From Candidatus Rokubacteria bacterium CSP1-6 (lineage in GTDB: Bacteria; Methylomirabilota; Methylomirabilia; Rokubacteriales; CSP1-6): a DNA stretch of 64,000 nucleotides. The position numbers were made by a program, and so were the translations under genes. The notes beneath the pieces were generated by a model that worked only from the letters and a program-made list of their open reading frames with translations, made no database searches and was not told the origin of the DNA. This document shows positions 14,232 to 62,520 of this stretch, piece by piece. Each line of letters begins with the position of its first letter. Position 1 is the first letter of the stretch. The stretch is taken from positions 33,755-97,754 of the forward strand of contig LDXP01000003.1 in NCBI GenBank assembly GCA_001443385.1, written 5' to 3'.

Positions 14232-16670
14232 ATGTCCCCCAACGAGCGCGTCGTTCCCGTCCCGATCGAAGAGGAAATGCGCAAGTCCTACCTGGCCTAC
14301 GCGATGTCCGTCATCGTCGGGCGGGCGCTCCCGGACATCCGCGACGGGCTCAAGCCTGTGCACCGCCGTGTGCTGTACACGATGCAAAGCCTCGGGCTGG
14401 CCTGGAACCGGGCGTACAAGAAATCGGCCAAGGTCGTGGGCGAGGTGCTCGGGAAGTATCACCCTCACGGCGACGCGCCGGTCTACGAAGCGCTGGTGCG
14501 GATGGTCCAGGAATTCTCCTTGCGCTACCCGCTGGTGGACGGTCAGGGCAACTACGGGTCGATCGACGGGGATCCGCCCGCGGCCTATCGCTACACGGAG
14601 GCGCGGCTGGCCAAGATCGCCCACGAGATGCTCGCGGACATCGACAAGGGGACGGTGGACTTCGTCCCGAACTTCGACGAGTCGGAGCAGGAGCCGACGG
14701 TTCTCCCGACCAGACTCCCCAACCTCCTGGTCAACGGCTCGTCCGGGATCGCGGTGGGGATGGCGACCAACATCCCGCCCCACAACCTCTCGGAGGTCGT
14801 GGACGGGCTCGTCATGCTCATCGACAACCCTGCCGCCACGGTGGACGACCTTATGGCGGTCATCAAGGGCCCCGACTTTCCCACGCGGGGGTACATCTAC
14901 GGGACGGCCGGGATCCGCGAGGCGTTCACCACGGGGCGCGGGACGATCACGATGCGGGCCAAGGCCCACGCCGAGAAGATGCGCGGCGGGCGCGAAGCGA
15001 TCATCGTGACCGAGCTGCCCTATCAGGTGAACAAGGCCACGCTGATCGAGAAGATCGCCGAGCTCGCCCGCGAGAAGAAGATCGAGGGGATTTCGGAGAT
15101 CCGCGACGAATCCAGCCGCGAGGGGATCCGGATCGTGCTCGAGGTGGGGCGGGGCGAGATCCCGCAGATCCTCCTGAACCAGCTCCACAAGCACACCCAG
15201 ATGCAGTCCACCTTCGGGGTCATCATGCTCGCCCTCGTGGACCGCCGGCCCCAGGTGGTGACCCTCAAGGAGATGCTGGAGGCCTTTATCCGCTTCCGGC
15301 GCGAGGTGGTGACCCGGCGGACGCGGTTCGACCTGGCTCGGGCCGAGGAGCGCGCGCACATTCTCGAGGGGCTCCGCAAGGCGGTGGAGCAGCTGGACCT
15401 GGTCATCCGGCTGATCCGCGGGGCGGAGAACCCCGAGGCCGCGAAGGACGCCCTCGTGCGGCGGCTCGAGCTGACGGAGGTCCAGGCCAAGGCGATCCTC
15501 GACATGCGCCTCCAGCGCCTGACCCAGCTCGAGCGCCACAAGATCGTGGAGGAGCACGAGCAGACGCTGGCGCTGATCGCCGATCTCAAGGACATCCTGG
15601 CCTCCGAGGGGCGGCTGATGCGGATCATCAAGGAGGAATTGCTGACCCTCAAGGCCGAGTACGGCGACGAGCGACGCACTGAGATCCTGACGGAAACCAC
15701 TGAACTCACCATTGAGGATTTGCTGGCCGACGAGGAGATGGTCGTCACGATCACGCGATCGGGCTACATCAAGCGCACGCACGTGGACCTCTACCGGAGC
15801 CAGCGGCGCGGCGGCAAAGGCGTGACGGGGATGGAGACCAAGGAGGAGGACGTTGTCCAGGACCTCTTCATCGCCACGACGCACTCCTACCTCCTCTTCT
15901 TCACGTCGCAGGGCAAGGTCCACTGGCTCAAGGTCCACGAGATCCCCGAGGGCGGCCGGCAGGCGAAGGGCAAGGCCATGGCGAACCTCCTGGCGCTGGC
16001 CGAGACCGAGCGGGTGGCGGCGGTGCTGCCGATTCGGGAGTTCGAGGCGGGCGGGTTCATCCTGTTCGCCACCAAGCAGGGGAAGGTGAAGAAGACGGAA
16101 CTGGAGGCGTACTCGCACCCCCGCGCGGGCGGGATCCAGGCCATCGCGCTCGAGGAGGGCGATGAGGTGATGGCCGCCCGGCGGACCGACGGCCAGCGCG
16201 AGGTTGTGATGTCCACCAAGAAGGGGATGATCATCCGGTTCTCCGAGGAGGAAGCGCGGCCCATGGGTCGCGTGGCGGCCGGGGTCCGGGGGATCGACGT
16301 CGAGGACGGCGACCAGGTGATCGCCGCCGAGGTTGTGCTGGAGGGGGCCGCCCTCCTCACGGTGACCGAGCGCGGCTACGGCAAGCAGACCCCGCTGGAG
16401 GAGTACCGCCTGCAGGGACGGGCCGGGAAGGGGATCATCGACATCAAGACCGGCGGGCGGAACGGCGACGTCGTGGGGGTGGTCCAGGCCCGGCCCGGCG
16501 ACGACATCCTGGTGGTCACGACCAAGGGGAAGATCATCCGGATGCACGCCCCCGACGTGTCGTCCCAGGGCCGGAACACGTGGGGCGTGCGCGTGATCGA
16601 CCTGGACCCCGACGATCAGGTGGGGAGCGTGGCGCGGGTCGACGCCGAGCAGACCGAGCCCGAATCATAG
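14232..16670 (+). CDS. gyrA: DNA gyrase subunit A
   Basis: 812-aa ORF with the active-site Tyr region (AAMRYTEARL-like [10 protein letters not shown]) and the C-terminal beta-pinwheel GyrA-box repeats. Confidence 0.95.
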
Positions 16671-18020
<1,350 letters not shown>

Positions 18021-18026
18021 ACGCCG

Positions 18027-18113
18027 GAGGGGTGGCCGAGCGGTTGAAGGCGCCGGTCTTGAAAACCGGAATCCCGCAAGGGATCGGGGGTTCGAATCCC
18101 TCCCCCTCCGCCA
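18027..18113 (+). tRNA. tRNA-Ser (anticodon TGA)
   Basis: Cloverleaf with GGAGGGG acceptor, anticodon loop CTTGAAA, long variable arm, T-loop TTCGAAT, and an encoded CCA. Confidence 0.85.
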
Positions 18114-18116
18114 AAT

Positions 18117-18190
18117 CCTCGGAGGGGGGCTCCGCCCCCCTTCCGACGCCCCGCGGCAAAGCCGGCGCGCGAAGCACGCGCGCTTTCGCC
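18117..18190 (+). repeat. Intergenic G/C-rich hairpin repeat, copy 1
   Basis: The 30-nt core CCTCGGAGGGGGGCTCCGCCCCCCTTCCGA is identical to the core at 48886 and to the reverse complement of 62491-62519; followed by the GGCAAAGCC hairpin motif. Confidence 0.8.
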
Positions 18191-18230
18191 AGAGCCCGGA
18201 ATGCCTTATAGTGGGTAGGCTTGACGCTTG

Positions 18231-18324
18231 GGAGAGGTGGCCGAGTTGGCCGAAGGCAGCCGCCTGCTAAGCGGTTACAGGGGCAAAACCTCTGTCCCGG
18301 GTTCGAATCCCGGCCTCTCCGCCA
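18231..18324 (+). tRNA. tRNA-Ser (anticodon GCT)
   Basis: Acceptor GGAGAGG, anticodon loop CTGCTAA, long variable arm, T-loop TTCGAAT, encoded CCA. Confidence 0.85.
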
Positions 18325-18326
18325 TC

Positions 18327-18403
18327 GCGCCCATAGCTCAGTTGGATAGAGCGTCGGACTACGAATCCGAAGGCCGCAGGTTCAAGTCCTGCTGGGCGCA
18401 CCA
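18327..18403 (+). tRNA. tRNA-Arg (anticodon ACG)
   Basis: GCGCCCATAGCTCAGTTGGATAGAGC... with anticodon loop CTACGAA and encoded CCA; 2 nt after tRNA-Ser(GCT). Confidence 0.9.
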
Positions 18404-18407
18404 TTTC

Positions 18408-18440
18408 GACCCCCCGGGAGGGCGCCACTCTCGGGGGGTC
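18408..18440 (+). terminator. GC-rich hairpin after the tRNA pair (GACCCCCCGGGAG...CTCTCGGGGGGTC)
   Basis: A 12-13-bp near-perfect inverted repeat right after tRNA-Arg; no U-tract, so the terminator or processing role is inferred. Confidence 0.4.
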
Positions 18441-18480
18441 CTTCGCTTCGCTGCCTGACCCCATCGTCCGGGTGTGCTAG

Positions 18481-18960
<480 letters not shown>

Positions 18961-18962
18961 TG

Positions 18963-19058
18963 CGGAGGGGTGGCCGAGCCCGGTTGAAGGCGTCCGACTC
19001 GAAATCGGATAGGGGCCCAGAAGGTCCCTCGGGGGTTCAAATCCTCTCCCCTCCGCCA
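18963..19058 (+). tRNA. tRNA-Ser (anticodon CGA)
   Basis: Acceptor GGAGGGG, anticodon loop CTCGAAA, long variable arm, T-loop TTCAAAT, encoded CCA. Confidence 0.8.
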
Positions 19059-19061
19059 TAT

Positions 19062-19154
19062 GGAGAGGTGACCGAGCGGCCGAAGGTGCGGCATTGGAAA
19101 TGCCGTGCACGGGTAAACCCTGTGCCGTGGGTTCGAATCCCACCCTCTCCGCCA
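19062..19154 (+). tRNA. tRNA-Ser (anticodon GGA)
   Basis: Acceptor GGAGAGG, anticodon loop TTGGAAA, long variable arm, T-loop TTCGAAT, encoded CCA. Confidence 0.85.
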
Positions 19155-19171
19155 TTTGGGACATACAGCGT

Positions 19172-19441
19172 GGCCGTGCTAGACGGGGAGGTAGCGGTGC
19201 CCTGTAGCCCGCAATCCGCTACAGCGGGGTTGAATCCCCTCTCGAGGCTTCTTCGCGTTGAATGAGCTTCACGGGGCGGCGTTGAGGGTTGGGCCCCACG
19301 CAACGAGAATCGTCGAACCCCGCCAGGCCCGGAAGGGAGCAACGGTAAGGCGACCCTCTCGTGTGCCGTGGGAGTACCTGACCGGAGCAGGTTCCGTGGA
19401 GAGATCGCAGGGCGAGCGAGGTCGATTGAGGGTGCACGGCC
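19172..19441 (+). ncRNA. ffs: Signal recognition particle RNA, large (Bacillus-type) form with an Alu domain
   Basis: 5' GGCCGTGCTAGACGGGGAGGTAGCGGTGCCCTGTAGCC...GGGGTTGAATCCCC resembles the Alu-domain start of B. subtilis scRNA. Domain IV motif CCAGGCCCGGAAGGGAGCAAC...GTGTGCCGTGGGAG is present. The 3' end GGTGCACGGCC pairs with the 5' end. Sits immediately upstream of dnaX, as in many bacteria. Confidence 0.75.
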
Positions 19442-19460
19442 ATTTATCTCCGAGGGCGAC

Positions 19461-21151
19461 ATGAGCTACCAGGTGCTGGCGAGGAAGTGGCGGCCCCAGA
19501 CCTTCGACGCGGTGGTCGGCCAGGAGCCGATCACGCGGACGCTCAGGAATGCGCTGGCGGCGAACCGGATCGCCCACGCCTATCTCTTCGCGGGACCGCG
19601 CGGGATCGGGAAGACCACCACGGCGCGCCTCCTCGCCAAGGCCCTGCTGTGCACCGCGCGCCGGGACCCGGAGCCCTGCGGCGCCTGTCCGGCGTGCCGG
19701 GAACTCGTCCTTGGGACGCTGGTGGATGTCATCGAGATCGACGGCGCCTCGAACCGCGGCATCGACGACATCCGCACCCTCCGGGAGAACGTCCGGTACG
19801 CGCCGGCCCGGGGGCGGTACAAGGTCTACATCATCGACGAGGCCCATCAGCTCACCAAGGAAGCGTTCAACGCGCTCCTCAAGACGCTGGAGGAGCCCCC
19901 GGCCCACGTCGTCTTTGTCCTGGCGACGACGCAGCCCCACGAGATGCCCCTGACGGTGCTCTCGCGCTGCCAGCGGTTCGACTTCAAACCGATCCCGCCC
20001 GAGCTGCTGTCGGCGAGCCTGGAGCGGATTTTGAGGGAGGAGAAGGTCGAGTTCGACCCCGCCGCGCTGCCGCTCCTGGTTCGCAGCGCCGAAGGGAGCC
20101 TGAGGGATGCCCTGTCGCTGCTCGACACCGCGCTGGCCTACGGCGGCGGCCGGCTCGCCGCCGACTCGCTGGCGCACCTCCTGGGCGCCAGCGCCCCGGC
20201 CCAGGTGCGGGCCTTCGTCGGCGCGCTCGTGGTGCGGGACGGGGCGGGGGCACTGGAGGCGATCGATCGGGCGGCGCAGGAGGGAGAGGATCTGGCCGTG
20301 CTCTGCCGGGAGACCGTGGAGGCGTTGCGCCGGCTCCTGCTCTTGAAGGTCGCGCCGCGCCTGTCCCCCCCGGACCTGACGGCGGCCGAGATCGAGGAGT
20401 TCCGGCAGAGGCCGCCCGGCTCAGCGAAGACGAGCTGCTCTTCGTCCTGAAGGGTTTCGTCGAGGCCGAGGGGGAGGTCCGGCGTTCCCCGCATCCCCGC
20501 GTGGAGCTGGAGATCGCCGCCGTTAAAGCGGTCCGGCGCCCCGTCGCCGCGGCGATCGAGAGCGTGCTGGCCAAGGTCGAGGAAGTCGAAGAGCGCCTCC
20601 GGCAGATGGCGTTTTTAGGCGGCGCCGCGCCGGCCGCGCCGTCGGGCCCGGTGCAGGAAAGCCTGATTCCCCCCGAGTCCGGCCCGCGTCCCGCGTCTCC
20701 CGGGCCGCGAAGCGCAGCACTCCCGCCGCCCGCGCCGCGCCCGCCCGCGAGCCCGTCGGCGAAACTTCCGGCCTCCGCCGCTGCGCCCGCGGCCCAGGGG
20801 CTGGACGCGGGCTGGCGGCAGGTCGTCGAGGAGGTCCTCCGACGGAAGCCCTCGCTGGGGGCGGTGCTCGAGCAGTCCACGCCCGTCACGCTCGCCGAGG
20901 GGAAGCTGACCGTGGCGCTCGTCGGCAATCACTTCCATAAGGAGCTCGTCGCCGATCGGGCCAACCACGAGCTCGTCACCCAGGCGGTTCAGCGCCACAT
21001 CCCCGGCGCCAAGCGGATCGAGATCAGCATGGGGGCAGCGCAGGAGGCCGGCGCCCAGGGGCATCCCGCCGTGCAGGCGGCGCTGTCGGTCTTCCAGGGC
21101 GAGGTGGTGGCGGTGCGGGCGAGGACCGAGGAAGGAGGGGAAGGCCAGTGA
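19461..21151 (+). CDS. dnaX: DNA polymerase III subunit tau/gamma; full length needs a -1 frame change near 20405-20420
   Basis: N-terminal AAA+ clamp-loader (GPRGIGKTT, DEAHQL) in the frame of 19461 up to ...TAAEIEEFRQ; it continues as ...AARLSEDELLFVLKGF... plus the conserved tau C-terminus only in the -1 frame (ORF 19487..21151). The zero frame stops at 20450. Confidence 0.85.
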
Positions 21152-22074: not shown

Positions 22075-22140
22075 GGCGAAGCGAGATCGAGTAAAATAGC
22101 CATGTTCCCCGGTAGCTCAACCGGTAGAGCAGGTGGCTGT

Positions 22141-22700
22141 AAGGAGGGTGAACAGGTGGCCGGTGGGCGGACATACGCTGATCGCCGCGAGTATCTCATC
22201 AAGGCCGTCCAGAAACGGCGTAAGGAGGTGCGCCGGAAGGCGCTTGTTTACAAGGGCGGCCGTTGTCAGAAGTGCGGTTATGATCGGTGTATGGAAGCGT
22301 TGGAGTTCCACCATCTGAACTCCTCGCGTAAGGATTTTGGGATCTCCAGTCAAGGGCATACCCGCAGCTGGAACAAGATCCGCGAGGAGTTAGAGAAGTG
22401 CGCGCTCCTTTGCGCCAACTGCCATCGAGAAGTTCACGCCGGACTGCAGCTTCCACAGGAAACTGTGGCTGTAACATCGGGTGAATTCAGGGAAGCCTAC
22501 CCCGGAGTCGTCGCGATTTCGGCACGGTAATCCTGAGCGAAGCCTGCCGAAGGGCCAGCGCGTAGGCAGGAACGTGCAGAGACTAGAGGCTGAGGAGCCC
22601 ATCCAATAAAGCCTCGCAAGCGCCCGACACCCTCCCTGGATCCGATGATCGAGGTGGGTGAAGAGATAGTCCGAGCCCAGTAGAAATGCTGGGGCACTCG
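22141..22700 (+). mobile_element. Group I intron (~560 nt) in the tRNA anticodon loop, carrying an HNH endonuclease ORF
   Basis: Core element R (GTGCAGAGACTAGA, 22574-22587) and S (AAGAGATAGTCC, 22661-22672) form P7. A Q-like AATCCTGAGC lies at ~22528. The intron ends in G (22700); the 5' exon ends in U. Confidence 0.75.
22156..22530 (+). CDS. HNH homing endonuclease (intron-encoded)
   Basis: Motifs CQKCGYDRC...EFHHL...N...CALLCANCHREVH (zinc-finger HNH). GTG 22156 lies 8 nt after GGAGG. The longer ATG at 22102 would overlap the tRNA 5' exon. Confidence 0.75.
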   Translation: MAGGRTYADRREYLIKAVQKRRKEVRRKALVYKGGRCQKCGYDRCMEALEFHHLNSSRKDFGISSQGHTRSWNKIREELEKCALLCANCHREVHAGLQLPQETVAVTSGEFREAYPGVVAISAR

Positions 22701-22740
22701 TAACCACAAGGTTGCAGGTTCGAGTCCTGCCCGGGGAGCC

Positions 22741-22781
22741 ATAAAACAAAAACGGCCGTCGGAGGTGACTCCGCCGGCCGT
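22741..22781. terminator. Bidirectional hairpin terminator (ACGGCCGTCGGAG-GTGA-CTCCGCCGGCCGT) with an A/T-rich flank
   Basis: A 13-bp stem; on the minus strand it is followed by UUUUUGUUUUAU, terminating the convergent minus-strand gene, and it also follows the tRNA 3' end. Confidence 0.6.
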
Positions 22782-29492: not shown

Positions 29493-29981
29493 CTAGCCCC
29501 GTCCCTGAGTCAGGGCCTTGAGTATGGCGCGGGCCCAGGGCGCGTCGAGGGAGGGCGTGGGAGCGTAGCGGAGCCCCCCGCTGATCCTGAGGCTGCTTTC
29601 CCACTCTGCCGGCGCGTCCTCGAGGACGTCCTCGACTCCGAGGACGAAGAGCCCGCAGTCAGGCAGGTCTTCGAGCAGGAGGGGTCCCGTCCGGGCCCGC
29701 GCCTTCACGTACACCGTCTGCTCCGGCTCCACGAGGAGGAGCGTGGCGACCCGCCGCTCGGCCAGGTTTCGCGCGCTCCGGCTCCCGGTGCCGATCACGA
29801 TCCGGATCGTCCGCGGATCGGCGGCGCGGACTTCGAGGGAGGAGAGGAGCATCGGGTGGGGTCGCCCTTCGGCGTCGAGGGTGATGAGCGGAATTGCCTT
29901 CCCGAGGTGGGCCGCGAGCTCCGCCTGCGACAGACGCGCCAGCACCTCGGCGGGCAGGCTCGGGCCCAGGCTCCGGGACAC
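29493..29981 (-). CDS. Pyridoxamine 5'-phosphate oxidase family FMN-binding protein (hypothetical)
   Basis: 162-aa ORF with a PNPOx-like split-barrel sequence pattern; weak assignment. Confidence 0.45.
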   Translation of the reverse strand: MSRSLGPSLPAEVLARLSQAELAAHLGKAIPLITLDAEGRPHPMLLSSLEVRAADPRTIRIVIGTGSRSARNLAERRVATLLLVEPEQTVYVKARARTGPLLLEDLPDCGLFVLGVEDVLEDAPAEWESSLRISGGLRYAPTPSLDAPWARAILKALTQGRG

Positions 29982-46589: not shown

Positions 46590-48484
46590 ATGATCCAGGC
46601 ACTGAGACGGAACCTGAAAGTTCTCTCGATCACCCTGTGGGTGGTGATCGCCGCCTTCATCGGCACCTCCTTCTTCGTCTGGGGAAAGGGGAGCATCACG
46701 GGCGGCGACTCCAACGCCGTGGCCACGGTCAACGGTGAGGAGATTCCCATCGAGCGTTACCAGCGCCTCTACCGCTCCTACCTCGAGTTCTACCGCCAGG
46801 TCTTCAAAGACCGCTTCACCACCGAGACCGCCGAGCGCCTCGGGATCTCCCAGCAGGTCGTGGACTTCCTGGTGGACGAGGTGCTGGTCCTTCAGCGCGC
46901 CCAGGCGGAGGGGATCCAGGTGGGCGACGAAGAGCTGCGGGCCAAGATCCAGGCCATCCGCGCCTTCCAGGAGGACGGCAAGTTCTCGCGGGATCGCTAC
47001 GCGGCCCTCCTGAACCGCGCCAAGATCGACCCGGCCACCTTCGAGGCCGATCAGCGGCGGGAGATCGTTCGGAAGAAGATGGAGGCCACCGTCAAGGGGG
47101 GGGTAAAGGTTTCCGACGCGGAGATACGCCAGGCGTACGAGGGCGGGAGAAGGTCCGGGCCGCCTGGGCCCAGGTTGAGATTTCCCCCCTCATGACGGAC
47201 GTCAAGGTGACCGACGCGGAGCTGGAGGACTTCCTGAAGAAGAACGCGCTCCGGTTCCAGGAGCCCGAACGGCGGCGGCTCCAGTACGTGCTCCTGAGCC
47301 CGAAGACTTTCATCAAGCCGGCGACAGACGCGGAAGTGGAGCGGTATTACAAGGAACACGTCGCCGAGTTCGAGAAGCCGCGGCGCGTGAAGGTGGCTCA
47401 CATCCTCGTCCGCGTGCCTCCGGTCGGGGGGAGCGAAGCCGAGGAAAAGGCCAAGGCCAAGGTGCTGGAGGTCCTCAAGCGGGTGCGGGCGGGGGAGGAT
47501 TTCGCCAAGCTCGCGAAGGACGTCTCCGAAGATCCGGCGTCGGCCGGTTCGGGGGGCGACCTCGGCTACGTTGCGCGGGGCGAACTGGTGCCGGCGTTCG
47601 AACAGGCGGCCTTCGCCCTGAAGAGGGGCGAGGTCTCCCAAGAGCCCGTGCGCACGCCGTTCGGCTATCACGCCATCAAGGTCACCGATATCCAGGAGGG
47701 CGGGCGGCGCCCGCTGAAGGAGGTCGCCGCGGAGATCAAGGGAAAGCTCCAGGGCGAGCAGGGCGAGCGCGCGGCCCTGGCCAAGGCGGAGGAGGTCAAG
47801 GGCCCCCTCCAGGGCGCCAAGGATTTCCCCGCCGAGGCGAGGCAGCGCGGCCTCGAGCCGAAGACGGCGCTCCTGGCGCGCGGCGACTCCCTCGAGGGAA
47901 TCGGCCGGGCCGAGGCCGTGGAAGAGGCCGTGTTCGCGGCGGCGCCGGGCGGCGTGCTGGGCCCCCTCAAGACCCCGGGCGGGTACGCGGTCGTCAAGGT
48001 GGTCGAGCAGCAACCCGCTGCCGTCCCGCCGTTCGCCGAGATCAAGTGGAAGGTGGCGGACGCAGTCAAGCGGCAGAAGGCTGAGGCCCTCGCGCTCAGC
48101 AGGGCTCAGGCGCTCGCCACGGCGGCGGAGAAGGGGGAAGACCTCCTGGCCGCGGCGAAGAAGCAGGGGCTCCCCTCAGGCGACACCGGGTTCCTCTCGC
48201 GCGCGGAGCCGGCCGCCGACCGGCGGGTGCCGGGCGAGGTCATGCGCGCGGCCCTCCAGCTGGCGGTGGGCAAGGTGGCCGAGCCCGTCACCCTCCCCCA
48301 GGGGATCTACGTGGTGAAGGCGCTGGAGCGCCGGGCTCCGGACCCGAGCGGGCTCGAGAAGGAGCGCGAGGAGCTTCGCCAGCAGGTGCTGGAGCAGAAG
48401 CGCACCCAGGCGTGGGAGCAGTGGGTCAAGGGCCTGAGGGCGGGCGCCAAGATCCAGGTCTCGTCTCGGCTCGCGTCGCCGTGA
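46590..48484 (+). CDS. ppiD: Periplasmic chaperone/peptidyl-prolyl isomerase PpiD, disrupted by an apparent -1 frameshift near 47140-47150
   Basis: N-terminal TM anchor and PpiD N-domain in frame 46590 up to ...AEIRQAYEG, continuing as REKVRAAWAQVEISPLMTDVKV... and a parvulin domain (GGDLGYVARGELVPAFE) in the -1 frame (47192..48484). Confidence 0.75.
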
Positions 48485-48885
48485 GACTGAAAAAGGCGGA
48501 AGCCCGGTTCATTGAGTGGGAGCGGGTATGCCGCGTGGCGACCGCGGGAGCGGGCGGGTGGCCCCACGGCGTTCCCGTCTGCCACGTCCTCTGGAACGGG
48601 AAGATTTACTTCGGCTCGGGGAACGACGCCAAGAAAGTGCTGAACCTCAGGGCCAATCCTCGGGTCGCGGTCACCGTGGACCTCTACTCTGACGCCTGGG
48701 AGAGTCTCAAGGGCGTGATGGTGCAGGGGTCCGCGAAGCTGATCGAAAAGGGGCCGCGGTTCCGGAAGATCCGCCAGCTCCTCTACACGAAGTACCCGCA
48801 GTATCCGCGCGAAGCTGCCCTCGACGAAAAGGATTCGCTGATCGCCGAGGTCACCCCCACCCGCATTTTTTCCTGGGGATTTTAG
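48481..48885 (+). CDS. Pyridoxamine 5'-phosphate oxidase family protein
   Basis: PNPOx split-barrel sequence (VATAGAGGWPHGVPVCHVLWNGKIYFGSGNDAKKVLNLRANPRVAVTVD); GTG overlaps the ppiD stop. Confidence 0.65.
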   Translation: MRLKKAEARFIEWERVCRVATAGAGGWPHGVPVCHVLWNGKIYFGSGNDAKKVLNLRANPRVAVTVDLYSDAWESLKGVMVQGSAKLIEKGPRFRKIRQLLYTKYPQYPREAALDEKDSLIAEVTPTRIFSWGF

Positions 48886-48951
48886 CCTCGGAGGGGGGCT
48901 CCGCCCCCCTTCCGATTCCTCCCCCCGAGATTGCGACGGCAAAGCCGTCGC
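48886..48951 (+). repeat. Intergenic G/C-rich hairpin repeat, copy 2
   Basis: CCTCGGAGGGGGGCTCCGCCCCCCTTCCGATTCCTCCCCCCGAG...GCGACGGCAAAGCCGTCGC; lies between convergent genes. Confidence 0.8.
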
Positions 48952-48967
48952 TCGAACAAGCGCCAGA

Positions 48968-51900
48968 CTAAGCCATCGGGCGGCGGCCGTTGGCCGTGCG
49001 GCCGTTGACCCACTGCCAGCGCGCGACGAGCGCGGCCTTCCAGCGGGGGAAGCGGATCCGGGAGAAGACGCGGAGCCCGCGCAGGTCGTCGAACATCGAG
49101 TAGATCACCGGAGTCACCAGCAGCGTGACGAGCAGGCAGAGGGCCTGGCCGCCGACCACGACGGTGGCCAGCGAGGCGCGCGAGGCCGCGCCGTCCCCCC
49201 GCCCCAGGGCCACCGGCAGCATCCCCGCGATGATCGCGAGCGTCGTCATCAGGATCGGGCGCAGCCGCGCCCGGTCCGCCTGCATCTGCGCCTCGAAGCG
49301 CTCCAGGCCCCGCTCCCGGAGGACGTTGGTGTAGTCCACCTGGAGGATCGCGTTCTTCTTGACCACCCCCATCAGGAGGAACACCCCCATGATCGAGTAG
49401 ATGTTGAGGCTCGCGTTGCGGACGCCGAGCTGGTAGAGGACCGTGAGCGTCAGGAGGCCGAAGGGGATCGAGAGGAACATGGAGACCATGATCGTGATCG
49501 GGTGGATGAAGGACTCGAACTGGGCCGCGAGGACGATGTAGATGAAGGCGAGCGACAGCACGAAGGCAATGAGGAAGTTCTGCATCGCCTCGGCCAGGAG
49601 CTTGCCCCGCCCGAGCGTGACGATGCCGTACTCGGAAGGCATCTTGAGCTCCTGCACGACCGCATACGCCTCGGCGAGGGCGGTCCCCAGGGGCTTCTGG
49701 TAGAGGTTCGAGATGATCGTGATAGAGCGCTCCTGGGCGTAGTGCTCGATCTGGCCCGGGCTCATCCCGGGGGCCAGCGTGGTCACGTTGGAGAGCTTGA
49801 CAAGCTGGCCGCCGGCACCCGGAGCGGCAAGGTCCGCGATGACGGACGCGTCCTTCCTGAAGGGCTCCTGGAGCCGGATGCGGACGTCGTACTGCTCGCC
49901 CGCCTCGCGGTAGAAGCCCGCCTTCTCGCCGCCCACCAGGGTCCGGAGCGCCGAGGCGATGCCGTCCACCCTGACGCCGAGGTCTGAAGCCCTTTGCCGA
50001 TCGATCAGGACCTGCAGCTCCGGCTGGCGCTGGGTCTGCGCCGTGTCCAGGTCCACGAAGCCGGGCTTGCTTCCCAGCGTCCGGATGACCGCCCGGGCGT
50101 GGCCGTCCAGCTGCTGGAGGTCCGGCCCGCGGAGGATCAGGTTGAACGGGGTCTGGCGGAAGCCGCCGCCGCCGATCAGGTTGATCTGCTGGGCGCTGAT
50201 CCTGAGCCCGGGGAAGACAGCGAGCCGTCTCCGGGCGTCCTGCTTGATCTCGTCCTGGGTGCGCTTGCGCTCGCTGAGGTGCGTCAAGCCGACGTAGAGC
50301 GAGATGTCCGTGACGTTCGACTGATACTGGCCCCGGACCCCGATGGTCGTGAAGAGGGTGCGCACCTCGGGGATCTTCCGCAGTTCACCCTCCAGCGCCC
50401 GGGCGATCTCGGTCGTGCGCTCGAGTGACGACCCGGGCGGGGCCTCGGCCACCACCTCGAACTCGCTCATATCGTCGTCCACCACGAACTCGACCGGAGA
50501 CTTGGCAAGGAGATAGAACCCGCCGACGAGGATGAGCAGCGCGCCTCCGATCACGGGCAGCCGGTGGCCCAGGCACCAGGCGAGGGCGGCTTCGTACCAC
50601 TGCTCCATCGCCCGGTAGAAGGCGGTTTCCTTTGAGGTTCGGGCGGTATCCTCCGCCTTGCGGGCCGAGAGGATCCGGGCCGCCAGCATCGGGGTCAGGG
50701 TGAACGCGACGACCAGCGAGACGATGATGGCGAAGGTCGTGGTGAGGCCGAAGGAGTTCCAGAACTTCCCCACGAGCCCGCCCATGAACGCCACGGGGAG
50801 GAAGATCACGACGAGAGAGAGCGTGGTGGCCGTGACGGCCAGCGCGATCTCGCGGGTGCCGGCGATCGCTGCGTCGAAGGGGGAGCGCCCTTCCTCCTCG
50901 GTGTGGCGGAAGATGTTCTCCAGCACGATGATGGCGTCGTCGATCACGATGCCCGTGGAGAGCGCCAGCCCGAGCATCGTCAGGTTGTTGAGCGTGAAGC
51001 CCGCGATGCGCATGGCCGTGAAGGTGGCGATGATCGAGCAGGGGATCGCCAGGGCGGCCACGAAGGCCGGCCGGAGCTTCCTGACGGCCACGAAGAAGAT
51101 CATCGTCGCGAGGATCGCCAGGCCGGTGACCTGGAGGAGCAACTGAGGGTTGCCCTGGAGGAAGGCGGCGCCCACCGCCGCGACGATGACCCCGATCGCC
51201 GCGGTTTCCCACCAGAGGAGGTTGCCGATGAAGACCGCGACGATGAGGCTGGCCAGGAGGCCGCCCAGGAGGAGGTGGTCCTGGACCTCGTGGAAGGAGC
51301 GCTTGATGAAGCGGGAGAGATCGCGAACGACCTCGAACCGGATGTCGGGCGGCAGCCCCTTCTGGACCTCCGCGAGTTTCTTCTTCACGGCGTCCACCAC
51401 CGCCACGGTGTTGGTGCCCGACTGCTTGCGGATGAGGAGACTGACCGCGTTCTGGCCGTTGAGCCGCGAGAGCGTCCGGGCCTCCTCTTCCCCGTCCACC
51501 AGGGTGCCGATGTCGCGGATGTGGACGGGCCCTCCCTTGAAGTCGGCGACGATCAGGTCGTTGAAGGCCGCCGGCGACTCGATCCGGCCGAGGGTGCGAA
51601 GGCCCTCTTCCCGCCCGCCCTCGGTCACCCGGCCCCCCGGGATCTCGACATTCTGGCGCAGGAGGGCGTCCTTGACCTGCTGGATGGAGAGGCCGAAGGC
51701 GGTCAGTTTGTGCGGGTCCACGAGGACCTGGATCTCGCGCTTGCGATCGCCCACCAGCGTGATGGCGCCCACGTCCTTCACGGTCTCGAGCTGGCGCTTG
51801 ATCCGCTTGTCGGCGATCTCGGTGATCTCGCGGGCCGAGCGCTGGCCCGAGACCACGAGCGCCATGACCGGGGCCGAATCCGGGTCGAACTTCTCGATGA

Positions 51901-52279
51901 CCGGCGGCTCCGTCCCGGCCGGGAAGCGCCCGACGACCGTCGCGACCTTCTCCCTGACGTCGTTTGCGGCTTCCTGGACACTTCGCTCCAAGACAAACGT
52001 GACGAAGACCTGCGATTGGCCCTCGATGGTGGTCGAGCGGAGCTCGTCGAGGCCGCTGATCGTGTTGACGACTTCCTCGATGGGCTTGGTGATCTGGCTC
52101 TCGATCTCCTCGGGGCTCGCCCCCGGCAGCCGGGTCGTGATCGTGATGGTGGGGAGATCGACCTTGGGGAAAATGTCCACGCCCAGCTGGATGAAGGAGG
52201 CCGCCCCCAGGACGACGAAGGCGGTGATCAGCATCGTGGTGAAGACCGGGCGGCGGACGAAGACTTCGAGAAAACTCAT
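48968..52279 (-). CDS. RND multidrug efflux transporter (AcrB/HAE1 family)
   Basis: 12-TM RND sequence of 1103 aa starting MSFLEVFVRRPVF (ATG 52279). The 1462-aa track ORF runs out-of-frame across the acrA-like gene. Confidence 0.9.
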   Translation of the reverse strand: MSFLEVFVRRPVFTTMLITAFVVLGAASFIQLGVDIFPKVDLPTITITTRLPGASPEEIESQITKPIEEVVNTISGLDELRSTTIEGQSQVFVTFVLERSVQEAANDVREKVATVVGRFPAGTEPPVIEKFDPDSAPVMALVVSGQRSAREITEIADKRIKRQLETVKDVGAITLVGDRKREIQVLVDPHKLTAFGLSIQQVKDALLRQNVEIPGGRVTEGGREEGLRTLGRIESPAAFNDLIVADFKGGPVHIRDIGTLVDGEEEARTLSRLNGQNAVSLLIRKQSGTNTVAVVDAVKKKLAEVQKGLPPDIRFEVVRDLSRFIKRSFHEVQDHLLLGGLLASLIVAVFIGNLLWWETAAIGVIVAAVGAAFLQGNPQLLLQVTGLAILATMIFFVAVRKLRPAFVAALAIPCSIIATFTAMRIAGFTLNNLTMLGLALSTGIVIDDAIIVLENIFRHTEEEGRSPFDAAIAGTREIALAVTATTLSLVVIFLPVAFMGGLVGKFWNSFGLTTTFAIIVSLVVAFTLTPMLAARILSARKAEDTARTSKETAFYRAMEQWYEAALAWCLGHRLPVIGGALLILVGGFYLLAKSPVEFVVDDDMSEFEVVAEAPPGSSLERTTEIARALEGELRKIPEVRTLFTTIGVRGQYQSNVTDISLYVGLTHLSERKRTQDEIKQDARRRLAVFPGLRISAQQINLIGGGGFRQTPFNLILRGPDLQQLDGHARAVIRTLGSKPGFVDLDTAQTQRQPELQVLIDRQRASDLGVRVDGIASALRTLVGGEKAGFYREAGEQYDVRIRLQEPFRKDASVIADLAAPGAGGQLVKLSNVTTLAPGMSPGQIEHYAQERSITIISNLYQKPLGTALAEAYAVVQELKMPSEYGIVTLGRGKLLAEAMQNFLIAFVLSLAFIYIVLAAQFESFIHPITIMVSMFLSIPFGLLTLTVLYQLGVRNASLNIYSIMGVFLLMGVVKKNAILQVDYTNVLRERGLERFEAQMQADRARLRPILMTTLAIIAGMLPVALGRGDGAASRASLATVVVGGQALCLLVTLLVTPVIYSMFDDLRGLRVFSRIRFPRWKAALVARWQWVNGRTANGRRPMA

Positions 52280-52281
52280 AC

Positions 52282-53403
52282 TTATTTCTGGACCACGGTG
52301 ACCGGCGCCCCGTTGAAGAGCTGCGGGAGGTTGGTGGTGGCCACGGCCTCGCCCGCCTTGACGCCGTGCTGGATCTCGACCCAGCCGCCTTGGCGGGTCC
52401 CGGGCTTCACCAGCCGCTCCTCGGCCTTGCCGTCGGTCACGACGAAGACCTTGGTGATGCCGACGAAGTACGTGACCGCCTCGGCGGGGACGAAGGTCAC
52501 CGTTTCGTCCTTCCGGGTGAGCACGGCGCCCTTGGCGAAGAAGCCGGGGCGGAGGCGGCCGTCGGCGTTGGGCACTCGGGCCTCCAGGGAGAGGCTCCGC
52601 GTCTGGACCTCCACGGCCGGGGCCACGCGCGTGACCTGGCCGGAAAAGGTCTGCCCGGGGTGGGCCTCCACCGTGAGCTCGAGCGCCTGGCCGCCCCGAA
52701 GCTCCGGGGCGTACCGCTCGGACACCGTCCCCGTGTACTTGAGCGGGTCGGCGACGACGAGGGTGAAGAGCGGCGCGCCGTCCTTCACGAACTCGCCGAC
52801 GTTGACGTGGCGCTTGGCGACCGCCCCCGTGATCGGGGCCCGGATCGTCGCGTCCTGGAGCTTCTTCCGGGACATGCCCAGCGCGGCCTCCATCCGCTGG
52901 ATGTCGGCGGCGCTCGACTGCGAGAGGGCCTGGGTGACGCGGTACTGGGTGCGCCACCGGTCGCGCTCCTGGGCGGAGATCAGCTCGCGCCGGTAGAGTT
53001 CCTCGGCCCGCTCGAGGTTGGCCTTGGCCTCGTCCTGCTCGGCTCTCATCCGTGCCTGCGTCTCTAGAGTCATGCGCAGACTTGCTTCCGACTGCTCCAC
53101 CTGGAGCCGGAACTCCCGGGCGTCCACGGTCGCGAGGACCTGGCCGGCTTTCACCCGGTCGCCCAGATCGGCGGAGATCTTGTCCACGGTGCCCGGGACC
53201 TCCGCCTTGACCTGGCTTTCCTCCCAGGCGAGCAGGCTGCCCACGGTCTCGACGCTTCGCTGGACGGCCCGCGTCTCGACCCGCGCCACCGTGACGGGGA
53301 GCGGTTTCCGCTCCGCCGCCTTCTTCGCGGGATCCTGGGCCTGGCCCTGCCCGCACGCCGCCAGCAGGAACGCCAGGAGGAGCGCCGGGGCCGCGCGTCT
53401 CAT
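52282..53403 (-). CDS. RND efflux membrane fusion protein (AcrA family lipoprotein)
   Basis: Lipobox LLAACG, coiled-coil and beta-barrel MFP domains. Confidence 0.85.
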   Translation of the reverse strand: MRRAAPALLLAFLLAACGQGQAQDPAKKAAERKPLPVTVARVETRAVQRSVETVGSLLAWEESQVKAEVPGTVDKISADLGDRVKAGQVLATVDAREFRLQVEQSEASLRMTLETQARMRAEQDEAKANLERAEELYRRELISAQERDRWRTQYRVTQALSQSSAADIQRMEAALGMSRKKLQDATIRAPITGAVAKRHVNVGEFVKDGAPLFTLVVADPLKYTGTVSERYAPELRGGQALELTVEAHPGQTFSGQVTRVAPAVEVQTRSLSLEARVPNADGRLRPGFFAKGAVLTRKDETVTFVPAEAVTYFVGITKVFVVTDGKAEERLVKPGTRQGGWVEIQHGVKAGEAVATTNLPQLFNGAPVTVVQK

Positions 53404-60624: not shown

Positions 60625-61566
60625 CTAGCCCCTCCTGCCCCGCTGGCGGAGCCACCCCATCACGCCGTGGGGGAGGAACACGACGGCGCCCATCAGGATC
60701 ACCCCGTAAATCATGAGGTGAACGCCCGCGTAGCTCTTCACGAGCCCGCGCGTGCCTTCGCCGAGGCCGCCCAGCAGGAACGAGCCCAGGAGCGGGCCCC
60801 AGACGGTGCCGGCGCCGCCGATGATCGGCCGGAGCAGGATCTCGATGGAGTTGGCGGGGCCGAAGCCGATCGCGGGGTCCACGTAGGAGAAGTACTGGGC
60901 GTAGAAGGAGCCGCCGAGCGCCGTGAGGCCGGCCGAGAGCGCCATCGCGGTGAGCTTCACCTGGTAGGCGTTGACGCCGAGCCCCTCGGCGGCGCTTTCG
61001 TTCTCGCGGATCGCCGCCATCTGGTAGCCGAGCTTGGAGTTCTCCAGCCGGCGGACCCCGTAGCACGCGGCGACCAGCATCACGAGGATGATGTAGTAGA
61101 AGTAGCGCTTGTCGCCGAACTGGAAGAGCGCGGGGGCATGTCCCCGGAGCGGCACGAGGATCCCGAAGGAGCCGCCCACCCAGTCGAGGTTGGTGGCCGC
61201 CACGCGGAAGATCTCGGCGAAGGCCAGCATGATCAGGGCGAAGTAGGCGCCGCGGAGGCCGAAGCGAAAGGAGAGGTGGCCGGTGACGAGCCCGACCAGG
61301 ACCGCCAGCGCGGCCCCGCACCACATCCCCACCCACGGCGTGAGGCCCGCCTTCACGAAGAGCAGGCTCGATGTGTAGGCGCCGATCCCGAAGAAGAGCG
61401 CGTGGCCGAAGGAGAACTGGCCGGCGTAGCCGCCCAGGATGTTCCAGCCCTGGCCCACGAAGGCGAAGAAGTAGATGAGGGTGAGCGTGCCGATCAGGTA
61501 CTCCGAGCGGACCAGGAGCGGGATCACCAGGGCCGCGGCCAGGAGCAGCAGCGGCAGCCTACGCAC
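60625..61566 (-). CDS. livM: Branched-chain amino acid ABC transporter permease LivM
   Basis: Permease TM pattern; GTG 61566 overlaps the livH stop by 8 nt. The N-terminal 61 residues of the track ORF are out-of-frame. Confidence 0.8.
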   Translation of the reverse strand: MRRLPLLLLAAALVIPLLVRSEYLIGTLTLIYFFAFVGQGWNILGGYAGQFSFGHALFFGIGAYTSSLLFVKAGLTPWVGMWCGAALAVLVGLVTGHLSFRFGLRGAYFALIMLAFAEIFRVAATNLDWVGGSFGILVPLRGHAPALFQFGDKRYFYYIILVMLVAACYGVRRLENSKLGYQMAAIRENESAAEGLGVNAYQVKLTAMALSAGLTALGGSFYAQYFSYVDPAIGFGPANSIEILLRPIIGGAGTVWGPLLGSFLLGGLGEGTRGLVKSYAGVHLMIYGVILMGAVVFLPHGVMGWLRQRGRRG

Positions 61567-62431
61567 TGGGGGTGCCGAGGAGGCCGGAAGGCTTGAAGAG
61601 GAGGACCAGGATGAACAGGGCGAAGATCCCGATCTGGGCCAGCGAGCCGTGGACGAAGAGCCCGCCCAGTGACTCCACGACGCCCACGAGCAGGCCGCCG
61701 GCCAGCGCGCCCGCGAAGGAGCCCATGCCGCCCAGCACGACGACGACAAATGCGGTGATGACGAGGGTGTTGCCCACCTCGGGAGAGACGTAGAAGAAGG
61801 GGACGGCCATCGCGCCGGCCGCCGTCACGCACGCCGTCCCGATCCCAAAAGCGACCGCATAGACCCGCTGGACCGGGATGCCCACGAGTGCGGCGCCGTC
61901 CCGCTCCTCGGCGGCCGCGCGGAGGGCTTTGCCCAGGTCGGTGAACCTCAGAAAGAGGAAGAGGAGCAGCGTGACGGCGAGCGCTCCCGCGAAGGCCAGG
62001 AGCCGGGGCAGGCTCAGGAGGATCGGCCCGAGGGAGACCGAGGCCTGCGAGTACGAGACGAGCAGCGTGCGGGGGTCGGCCTTGAACGTGAGGAGCGCCA
62101 GGTTTTCCAGGAAGAGCGCCAGCCCCAGCGTCATCAGGAGCTGGTTGTGCTCGGGAGCCTCGAGGACGGGGGTGATGACGGCGCGCTGGATCGCGTAGCC
62201 CACCGCGAAGCCCAGGGGGAGGGTGACGGCCAGCGAGAGGTAGGGATCCACGCCCCCGAGCTTGGCCAGCCAGAAGGAGGCGTACATGGCCCACATCATC
62301 AGCGCGCCGTGGGCGAAGTTGATGATCTTCATCACCCCGAAGATCAGGGTGAGGCCGAGGGCGACCAGGGCGTAGAGGCCGCCCAGCATCACGCCGTTGG
62401 CCAGGCTCGACAGGACGACCGCGCTGCTCAT
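61559..62431 (-). CDS. livH: Branched-chain amino acid ABC transporter permease LivH
   Basis: 290-aa permease with conserved LivH sequence. Confidence 0.88.
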   Translation of the reverse strand: MSSAVVLSSLANGVMLGGLYALVALGLTLIFGVMKIINFAHGALMMWAMYASFWLAKLGGVDPYLSLAVTLPLGFAVGYAIQRAVITPVLEAPEHNQLLMTLGLALFLENLALLTFKADPRTLLVSYSQASVSLGPILLSLPRLLAFAGALAVTLLLFLFLRFTDLGKALRAAAEERDGAALVGIPVQRVYAVAFGIGTACVTAAGAMAVPFFYVSPEVGNTLVITAFVVVVLGGMGSFAGALAGGLLVGVVESLGGLFVHGSLAQIGIFALFILVLLFKPSGLLGTPSA

Positions 62432-62455
62432 AAGCTGCCTCGCGCCCGTTCGAGC

Positions 62456-62520
62456 GCCGGCTTTGCCGGCGCAACCCTCGGGGGGAGGTATCGGAAGGGG
62501 GGCGGAGCCCCCCGCCGAGC
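62456..62520 (-). repeat. Intergenic G/C-rich hairpin repeat, copy 3 (inverted orientation)
   Basis: Reverse complement reads GCTCGGCGGGGGGCTCCGCCCCCCTTCCGATACCTCCCCCCGAGGGTTGCGCCGGCAAAGCCGGC, about 90% identical to copy 2; lies between the livK stop and the livH start. Confidence 0.8.

Follow-up and report, generated by a model that had tools for sequence, protein, structure and literature searches.

A dispersed family of structured, probably mobile intergenic repeats at the gene junctions of Rokubacteriales

The 64,000-nucleotide (nt) stretch of Candidatus Rokubacteria bacterium CSP1-6 analysed here (contig LDXP01000003.1 of assembly GCA_001443385.1, positions 33,755 to 97,754; hereafter the window) contains three copies of a short G/C-rich repeat. 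All three are oriented alike with respect to the gene that precedes them, each beginning 1–3 nt past that gene's 3′ end. A preliminary description of the window had proposed that they belong to a new family of hairpin repeats. The family is real, abundant, lineage-wide across Rokubacteriales and so far undescribed, and it is of the same kind as repetitive extragenic palindromic (REP) sequences and miniature inverted-repeat transposable elements (MITEs). We put a probability of about 0.6 on the reading that the three sequences are short, non-autonomous, probably mobile intergenic elements of this order that keep their flanking genes functional.

The 30-mer CCTCGGAGGGGGGCTCCGCCCCCCTTCCGA occurs exactly at 18117–18146 (+) and 48886–48915 (+) and with two mismatches at 62491–62520 (−), essentially as the preliminary description had it, and has no match in 100 dinucleotide-preserving shuffles. 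Searches of fetched sequence were made with nhmmer and Infernal, and the Infernal covariance model finds exactly three copies in the window, scoring 91.9 bits (copy 2), 90.9 bits (copy 3) and 49.5 bits (copy 1); the next-best matches score 19–21 bits, which is noise level. A candidate fourth copy at 29549–29587 was rejected because its score, 9.5 bits, is noise. Copies 2 and 3 align across the full 71–72-nt core at ∼89% identity (∼90% over ∼65 nt had been claimed), have CCTCCCCCCGAG in common and carry the terminal hairpins GCGACGGC-AAA-GCCGTCGC and GCGCCGGC-AAA-GCCGGCGC. Gene calls and domain matches also bear out the three gene contexts that had been described.

Copy 1 (18117–18186, +; E=2e-08) begins 3 nt past the CCA end of a tRNA-Ser(tga) gene called by ARAGORN (18026–18113, +). 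It is a degenerate or 'long-form-like' variant, with hairpin 1 at 18118–18146, a small hairpin CGGC-AAA-GCCG at 18154–18164 and a further hairpin GCGCGCG-AAGCA-CGCGCGC at 18165–18183 (all +). Copy 2 is a complete core (48886–48956, +; fold z=−3.67) made up of hairpin 1 (TCGGAGGGGGGC-TCC-GCCCCCCtTCCGA, 48888–48915), box B (CCTCCCCCC, 48918–48926), hairpin 2 (GCGACGGC-AAA-GCCGTCGC, 48933–48951) and the sequence TCGAA (48952–48956), all on the same strand. It follows a PNPOx-family (PNPOx_N) gene (48412–48885, +), whose TAG stop codon at 48883–48885 lies 1 nt ahead of the model core (48887). Because the stop codon of the convergent gene, which encodes an AcrB/resistance-nodulation-division transporter (48968–53356, −), lies 11 nt past the TCGAA, copy 2 fills the whole 82-nt intergenic gap. 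Copy 3 is likewise a complete core (62449–62520, −), with hairpin 1 at 62518–62491 carrying an A-to-C change in its stem, box B at 62488–62480, hairpin 2 at 62472–62454 and TCGAA at 62453–62449. It separates a livK-like periplasmic binding protein gene (Peripla_BP_6; 62522–63742, −), whose TAG stop codon (62524–62522) is 2 nt ahead of the repeat, from the downstream livH-like permease gene (BPD_transp_2; 61559–62431, −). The 17-nt 3′ tail of copy 3, CGGGCGCGAGGCAGCTT (62432–62448, −), places a GAGG 6 nt ahead of the livH ATG, and a similar tail, TCGAAC-RR-GCGCG, is found again in other copies.

Comparison of many copies defines the unit, which has a core of ∼72 nt and measures 75–130 nt overall. 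From 5′ to 3′ it consists of hairpin 1, a spacer of 0–3 nt, the C-rich box CCTCCCCCC, a variable purine-rich linker, hairpin 2, TCGAA and a variable 3′ tail, all preceded by a 2–7-nt A/T-rich leader without conserved sequence (60% A+T versus ∼30% in the flanks). Hairpin 1 (28 nt) has two types: A1, TCGGAGGGGGGC-N3-GCCCCCC(T)TCCGA, forms 12 base pairs (bp) with a bulged T, and A2, TCGGAGGGGGCC-TCGAC-GGCCCCCTCCGA, forms 12 bp free of bulges. A sample not selected on hairpin 1 held 63 copies of type A1, 47 of type A2 and 16 without a recognisable hairpin 1. In some copies, the 'long forms', a 40–60-nt two-hairpin insert takes the place of the short spacer. The box has the consensus CCTCCCCC(C), and the linker behind it is 3–15 nt long. 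Hairpin 2 (19 nt), (TT)GCGCSGGC-RAA-GCCSGCGC, has 8 bp and a 3-nt loop, and conservation dwindles within ∼4 nt of the TCGAA that follows it. Each hairpin has a 3-nt loop of the C-GNA-G type on one of its strands, which is the sense strand for hairpin 2 and the antisense strand for hairpin 1. The ends of the element, CTCGGAGGGG at 5′ and GCGCTCGAA at 3′, show no terminal inverted repeats when compared; they share only a 5–6-nt direct repeat, CTCGRA (CTCGGA...CTCGAA). Copy 1 shares hairpin 1 alone with copies 2 and 3 and continues into a degenerate tail without the CCTCCCCCC box; it resembles the beginning of a long form from which the box has been lost.

The 3′ tails are common to subfamilies, one being the TCGAAC-RR-GCGCG type and another ending in TTACTCSGACA-N6-CTAG. 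This second motif lies 40–50 nt 3′ of hairpin 2 at L004, L007, L018, L023, L076, L098, L013 and L050 (L numbers label the compared loci, taken from relatives' contigs) and also adjoins a reverse-orientation copy (L113, 1440–1470). Possibly it is a module in its own right, or else it marks where a longer form really ends at 3′. Some copies carry extra modules nested within hairpin 2 or between the box and hairpin 2; these are a hairpin CGGGTACCCRCGCC-GAA-GGCGYGGGTG within hairpin 2 and a ∼70-nt segment, GCAGTTCGAGCGTGGCGGGTT..., between box and hairpin 2 (loci L011, L059, L083, L086, L092, L095; L042, L079, L105).

The hairpin fold is conserved, with compensatory changes in both hairpins. When the structure was specified by hand, 97.6% of the alignment cells pair and 7 of the 20 pairs show double-sided changes. 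In a model-based alignment of 131 copies, whose fitting to the model favours the structure, paired cells make up 98.4% and double-sided changes affect 14 of the 20 pairs. None of 500 shuffles reached these values, and slid controls gave 46–63% pairing. The swaps can be read in the raw sequences: in hairpin 1, TCGGA/TCCGA becomes TGGGA/TCCCA or CCGGA/TCCGG and GGGGGGC/GCCCCCC becomes GGGGGGT/ACCCCCC, and at the centre of hairpin 2, 58 copies have a CG pair, 48 have GC and 2 have UA. Both types of hairpin 1 keep the stem. Moreover, in one orthologous pair of copies (L010/L066) whose flanks are 96.9% identical, all four differences within the element fall in the ∼10 linker positions, as expected if the modules are constrained or are being homogenised.

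Two further structural ideas did not hold. The box CCTCCCCCC and the arm GGAGGGGGG mirror each other, yet roles for the box as third strand of an intramolecular pyrimidine-purine-pyrimidine triplex, or as pairing partner of the arm, are unsupported: the arm variants GGCGG and GAAGG mostly keep CCTCC, L081 alone co-varying. The lengths of the G-run and the C-run, judged by eye and uncounted, correlate only at the level of subfamilies, with many exceptions.

Strong GC-rich stems right behind genes, and the position of all three window copies after a gene's 3′ end, are also what an ordinary rho-independent terminator or a transcription attenuator might look like, and both had been suggested for this repeat. 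However, neither stem is followed by a U-tract on either strand (the tails read UCGAA and UUCCGA) and a terminator scan returned no terminator-like site, so that a canonical terminator is unsupported. An attenuator is unlikely because copies of either orientation are found at the 3′ ends of genes or immediately next to start codons. Copy 3 lies inside an operon, between livK and livH, many antisense copies are directly upstream of start codons, and sequence identity over hundreds of loci would not be expected of terminators that arose independently. We regard this explanation as very improbable.

The repeat is widespread. A search of contigs representing one genome per species found the 23-nt core GGGGGGCTCCGCCCCCCTTCCGA exactly at no fewer than 107 loci (at least 26 species-level metagenome-assembled genomes), and among the matches listed nearly all of these genomes are labelled Rokubacteria, Rokuibacteriota or Methylomirabilota. 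A pattern of the C-rich box and hairpin 2, with hairpin 1 left out, matched at least 120 metagenome contigs. The covariance model recovered 131 copies from 741 kb of fetched sequence. Once the copies used for selection are removed, the density is ∼1 copy per 20–25 kb, to which the window (3 in 64 kb) is comparable; extrapolation from this density gives an estimate of a few hundred copies per genome, about 200–300. The prediction of many copies genome-wide was therefore correct, and an outcome of only three copies without conserved structure did not occur. Nor did the repeat prove to be a known annotated element: Rfam gave no match at the three copies even at E values up to 10 (best sub-threshold score 20.2 bits against a threshold of 55), we found no paper with the core sequence and none describing Rokubacteria repeats, and no Rfam family or publication accounts for the repeat. 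Viral contigs gave no matches to it.

A few exact-core copies lie in bins of other phyla (L033; L067, in a genome labelled Acidoferrum; L051, in one labelled Actinomycetes); these could be mis-binned Rokubacteria contigs or the result of horizontal transfer. Rokubacteria are abundant uncultured bacteria of soils and aquifers with large genomes, and the repeat fills their gene junctions. Its exactly conserved 23-nt core can serve as a marker of the Rokubacteriales lineage in metagenomes and as an entry point for finding the enzyme that recognises it.

The repeat also matters for annotation and assembly. Open reading frames run through it, and some neighbouring start and stop calls are wrong. 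At L010 (5635–5705, −) a stop codon has been lost and the reading frame is extended by the element. Partial duplicates of the 5′ arm stand immediately upstream of some full copies. The two features, for which L010, L049, L087 and L047 are the loci concerned, are both likely sources of mis-annotated protein ends. The G/C homopolymer hairpins may break contigs. At L110 (3883–3960) long irregular stretches of G and C (GGGGGGGGGGGGCGGGGGGGCCCCCCCC...) stand in place of the orthologous tRNA-Ser copy, apparently because the hairpin was misassembled or misread in sequencing.

Where the repeat sits is as distinctive as how it folds. With flanking coding strands called from the periodicity of G+C at third codon positions, 35 copies are sense co-directional, 24 antisense co-directional, 17 convergent and 3 divergent; the repeat occupies very short junctions of co-directional or convergent genes and avoids divergent, promoter-bearing spacers. 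The end that touches genes is the hairpin-1 end. An in-frame stop codon lies 0–5 nt ahead of the element in 42 copies of the genome sample, and TAG is over-represented among these stops (55% versus 33% background). An independent metagenome sample replicated the geometry: of 46 sense-coding upstream flanks, 39 (∼85%) have a stop codon that ends −1 to 6 nt before the element. Behind tRNA-Ser genes, the distance from the CCA end to the element is 3–5 nt (window, L036, L063, L109–L111). At the hairpin-2 end, a broader non-coding stretch of 6–100 nt follows. The simplest explanation for such close contact with stop codons and tRNA ends is survival only in near-zero-length, promoter-free junctions, together with the element's own variable 20–60-nt tail; active targeting of gene ends is also possible.

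The copies directly behind tRNA-Ser genes raise the question of a tRNA-derived sequence or a leftover integration site, and the hairpin-1 stem GGAGGGG/CCCCTCC does resemble the acceptor stem of tRNA-Ser, with a 9-nt stretch, CCCCCTCCG, in common with the tRNA 3′ end. However, the shared sequence is of low complexity, ARAGORN and Rfam detect no tRNA-like fold, most copies come after protein-coding genes, and there are no integrase genes nearby as far as neighbours can be judged by their N-terminal sequences (no Pfam run). Such an origin is hardly credible. A mimic of the tRNA-Ser acceptor stem and a substrate of RNase P were likewise rejected, on the grounds that the similarity is of low complexity alone and that no tRNA-like call was made.

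Antisense copies pose a different problem. In 17 of them, which include both types of hairpin 1, the hairpin-1 end lies 1–5 nt from an ATG on the opposite strand, and this leaves no room for a conventional Shine-Dalgarno sequence. The proteins that begin at these ATGs have credible N-termini, among them MSIDRRRFLQ (a twin-arginine-type signal), MMQRIVVGMSGGV (PP-loop) and MKIAILGGTG. On the antisense strand the order is box GGGGGGAGG (GGAGG), 1–2 nt, the 28-nt hairpin, 2–6 nt and AUG. If only unpaired nucleotides are counted, 9 copies have an effective spacing of 5 nt, 3 of 6 nt, 3 of 7 nt, 1 of 8 nt and 1 of 4 nt. From this geometry we infer that the box and hairpin 1 act as a portable split Shine-Dalgarno, which would make antisense insertions by start codons viable. 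This putative built-in split signal is the most interesting feature of the repeat. Sense copies may serve the next gene in another way, since their tails often supply a GAGG at normal spacing (for example GCGAGGCAGCTT-ATG in the window and TCGAGG(Y)CCTGAG-ATG at L010/L066).

There is a precedent in phage T4, where a hairpin in genes 38 and 25 cuts the distance between Shine-Dalgarno and AUG from 22 to 5 nt and from 27 to 11 nt and is needed for efficient initiation (PMC3014915). As in T4, a stable hairpin between Shine-Dalgarno and AUG would shorten the spacing, in the repeat from ∼31–36 nt to a predicted 4–8 nt. The T4 hairpin, however, is a feature of single genes, whereas the repeat is dispersed and would use the arrangement in its antisense copies only. 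If the split Shine-Dalgarno is real, many unrelated genes receive ribosome-binding sites from a dispersed element, and selfish DNA would thereby have a general means of spreading through compact genomes harmlessly.

Evidence that the elements have been gained comes from orthologous junctions. Between livK and livH, two relatives whose livH is 78% identical to that of the window (L115, L116) have stop and start codons 1 nt apart or overlapping (0–1 nt), and a third (L114, 81%) has an unrelated 58-nt spacer. The window and L112 (livH 98% identical) have the stop codon, 2–3 nt, the core, the 17-nt tail with GAGG and the start codon. In L113 (85%) the spacer is 294 nt long and ends in a hairpin 1 of the opposite orientation, 11 nt before a GTG start codon; a further reverse-orientation copy lies between livH and the next permease gene. 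The junction is empty in some relatives, filled in others and filled the opposite way in another, and has therefore been colonised independently, by elements gained independently. The serS/tRNA cluster is syntenic in four relatives (L108–L111). In L108 (SerS 94% identical) a 29-nt spacer without the element follows tRNA-Ser(tga), and in L109–L111 (SerS 88–83% identical) variant copies stand there, some with a type A2 hairpin 1.

These junctions bear on the alternative that the repeat is a cis-regulatory RNA motif selected by the host for operon-internal processing, stability or termination, rarely duplicated and not a selfish mobile element. Such a motif would account for the retention of both hairpins and the C-rich box in at least 26 species while linkers vary, for the strict placement at gene ends away from divergent spacers, and for the position between binding-protein and permease genes, which mirrors classic REP-dependent differential expression. 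It sits poorly, however, with a livK-livH junction that was colonised independently, once in each orientation, and has no element in some relatives, with the use of both orientations (35:24), and with tails and nested modules that subfamilies have in common at unrelated loci. Target duplications at some copies, the lack of strand bias in wobble pairs and the 3-nt loops, which are atypical of selected RNA hairpins, also argue against it. We consider a host-selected motif possible, if rather unlikely.

The duplications are few. Long direct repeats of the target, of variable length (8–54 nt), bracket some 5% of copies. Flanking repeats with an alignment score of at least 28 number 5, against 0.1 expected; two of the five (window, L063) are merely the similar 3′ ends of neighbouring tRNA-Ser genes, and L056, L020 and L096 remain. 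At L056 a 54-nt duplication covers the 3′ end of a dehydrogenase-like gene, both copies encoding FIVAIGRVGRATVLRGL followed by a stop codon, and the duplicate beyond the element still has the native overlap of its stop codon with the start of the following gene. At L020 ∼50 nt of a gene's 5′ end are duplicated, L096 has an 18-nt duplication, and L073 has 10 nt plus diverged sequence. Long target duplications of this kind would be what an insertion needs in order to survive in overlapping junctions.

Several observations weigh against mobile elements. No target duplication is visible at livK-livH, and a search for a short duplication of fixed length found none, most copies having no duplication at all and the excess being confined to long repeats. 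The repeat has no terminal inverted repeats, and no transposase or partner gene was apparent beside or between the copies at 111 genome loci, a shallow survey in which the housekeeping-like neighbours were judged by their N-termini only, without a Pfam run. The empty tRNA-Ser site of L108 may be a deletion rather than the ancestral state, and selection by the host, not recent movement, could be the reason why hairpin 1 is exactly conserved across species. Nor does orientation relative to transcription depart far from even (35:24), and mismatches of the G-U type (17) versus the A-C type (10) give no signal of a functional strand. Apart from these points, the 5′ side shows no fixed short target (positions −7 to −1 are ∼60% A+T without fixed sequence), and the flank-junction pattern of an empty allele of copy 2 has no matches in metagenomes.

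The points on strands also bear on an explanation at the DNA level, in which gyrase, a nucleoid protein, a recombinase or another host protein would bind the repeat as a cruciform or single-stranded hairpin and so organise the chromosome, effects on expression being incidental. Near-palindromic stems are usable on either strand, the wobble pairs give no strand signal, and the spacing is regular at ∼1 copy per 20 kb. Loops of the C-GNA-G type, which both hairpins have on one strand, are known to make DNA mini-hairpins very stable. Nothing points to a binding protein, however, and such a site leaves unexplained both the tight geometry relative to stop and start codons and the asymmetric, fixed order of two different hairpins and a box. 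We think a DNA-level site distinctly unlikely.

How would mobile elements persist in such junctions? On the reading that we prefer, they would be co-transcribed with their neighbours, and their modules would keep the neighbouring genes working; insertions would therefore be tolerated exactly at those junctions. In sense copies, the two stable stems, beginning 0–6 nt after a stop codon or 3–5 nt after a tRNA CCA end, may act as a 3′-end barrier or processing point, a role that rests on analogy with the malE/malF REP hairpins and others between binding-protein and permease genes, and the tail could give the next gene a GAGG. In antisense copies, hairpin 1 would fold between the box GGGGGGAGG and the AUG and bring the Shine-Dalgarno to an effective 4–8 nt, as in T4 genes 38 and 25. 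For movement itself, the 3-nt C-GNA-G loops, the subterminal hairpins, the direct CTCGGA...CTCGAA ends and the missing terminal inverted repeats and fixed target duplication hint at, and are compatible with, a single-stranded-DNA route of the HUH/Y1 type; this is a lead, not a result.

A bolder version joins these steps into a new kind of element, an 'expression-neutral junction cassette'. It would be mobile and would target, or survive only at, the ends of open reading frames and tRNA genes through its own translation and processing signals, with a stop-abutting protective hairpin and a tail Shine-Dalgarno in one orientation and a hairpin-bridged split Shine-Dalgarno in the other. It would move via single-stranded hairpin intermediates, through an as yet unrecognised enzyme able to leave long, variable target duplications. 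We offer this combination only speculatively and think it unlikely as a whole.

The part of the window around copy 1 has features of its own. The SerS protein encoded next to this copy matches that of Candidatus Rokubacteria bacterium CSP1-6 at 100% identity. The order gyrA, serS, tRNA-Ser/Ser/Arg, deaminase, tRNA-Ser/Ser, signal recognition particle (SRP) RNA and dnaX (14232–21151) is kept in L108–L111, and the SRP RNA (19174–19439, +) is of the large, Bacillus type. A stem-loop, CCCCCGGGAGG...CTCTCGGGGGG (∼18410–18440, +), directly 3′ of tRNA-Arg(acg), is kept in all five orthologous loci (the window and L108–L111) and is unrelated to the repeat family. Further on, at 22106–22741 (+), a tRNA gene is split by a group I intron of ∼560 nt (Rfam RF00028 at 22390–22693, 75.5 bits), which contains an open reading frame with a Cys/His (HNH-like) motif. 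This tRNA is called by ARAGORN only if introns are allowed for, and with an ambiguous anticodon.

Among known repeats, those closest in behaviour are REP sequences and the bacterial interspersed mosaic elements (BIMEs) built from them. REPs fall into GTAG and CGTC super-families, named for an unpaired tetranucleotide tag at one end of the palindrome, and are found mainly between unidirectional or convergent reading frames, downstream of coding regions (Di Nocera et al. 2013, PMC3733652). The Rokubacteriales repeat shares this distribution (59 co-directional, 17 convergent and 3 divergent). Like REP and BIME sequences, which have been proposed to be miniature mobile elements, it is high-copy, GC-rich, extragenic and built of imperfect palindromes, of 28 nt in hairpin 1 and 19 nt in hairpin 2 (20–40 bp in REPs), and is probably co-transcribed. 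The position of copy 3 between binding-protein and permease genes is that of the classic REP sites at malE-malF and hisJ-hisQ. However, the repeat has no unpaired GTAG or CGTC tag (GTAG occurs in only 3 of 42 copies, and the stems are flanked by TTCCGA, TT and TCGAA). Two different hairpins and a C-rich box in fixed order make up its unit, in place of one palindrome or an inverted dimer, and its copies are single; loci with several matches are tandem or distant, without inverted doublets of the REPIN kind. It is conserved across many species, one of its ends abuts stop or start codons, and no REP-associated tyrosine transposase (RAYT) is linked to it (111 loci judged by the N-termini of neighbours, no Pfam run, no whole genome).

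A second comparison is with MITEs such as the Correia elements of Neisseria, and with pneumococcal BOX and enterobacterial ERIC sequences, which are ∼70–150 nt long, non-autonomous, intergenic, co-transcribed, structured and modular. Repeats of this type can carry expression signals, and their presence or absence varies between relatives. The Rokubacteriales repeat resembles them in these respects, and its insertion polymorphism appears at orthologous sites, the livK-livH and tRNA-Ser junctions. MITEs differ in that the repeat has no terminal inverted repeats, that its target duplication is absent or long and variable (8–54 nt), and that its ends form the direct repeat CTCGGA...CTCGAA. The palindrome-associated transposable elements (PATEs) derived from IS200/IS605, and other elements mobilised by HUH/Y1 enzymes, have subterminal hairpins, no inverted repeats or regular target duplications and an oriented insertion, and their structures are plausibly used as single-stranded DNA. 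The repeat resembles them in having a hairpin near each end, an oriented insertion and neither inverted repeats nor regular target duplications, and its structures too may plausibly serve as single-stranded DNA. Unlike them, its two hairpins are mutually unrelated, no fixed 4–5-nt target precedes it, just 2–7 A/T-rich nt, and no TnpA gene is apparent among its neighbours (N-terminal sequences, no Pfam run). The preliminary description had called the repeat REP/MITE-like. Strict membership of either family does not stand, since the repeat lacks the tags, terminal inverted repeats and fixed target duplications that define them. The likeness in behaviour does: with REP/BIME sequences and MITEs, the Rokubacteriales repeat shares an existence as a short, structured, intergenic, probably co-transcribed and insertion-polymorphic element.

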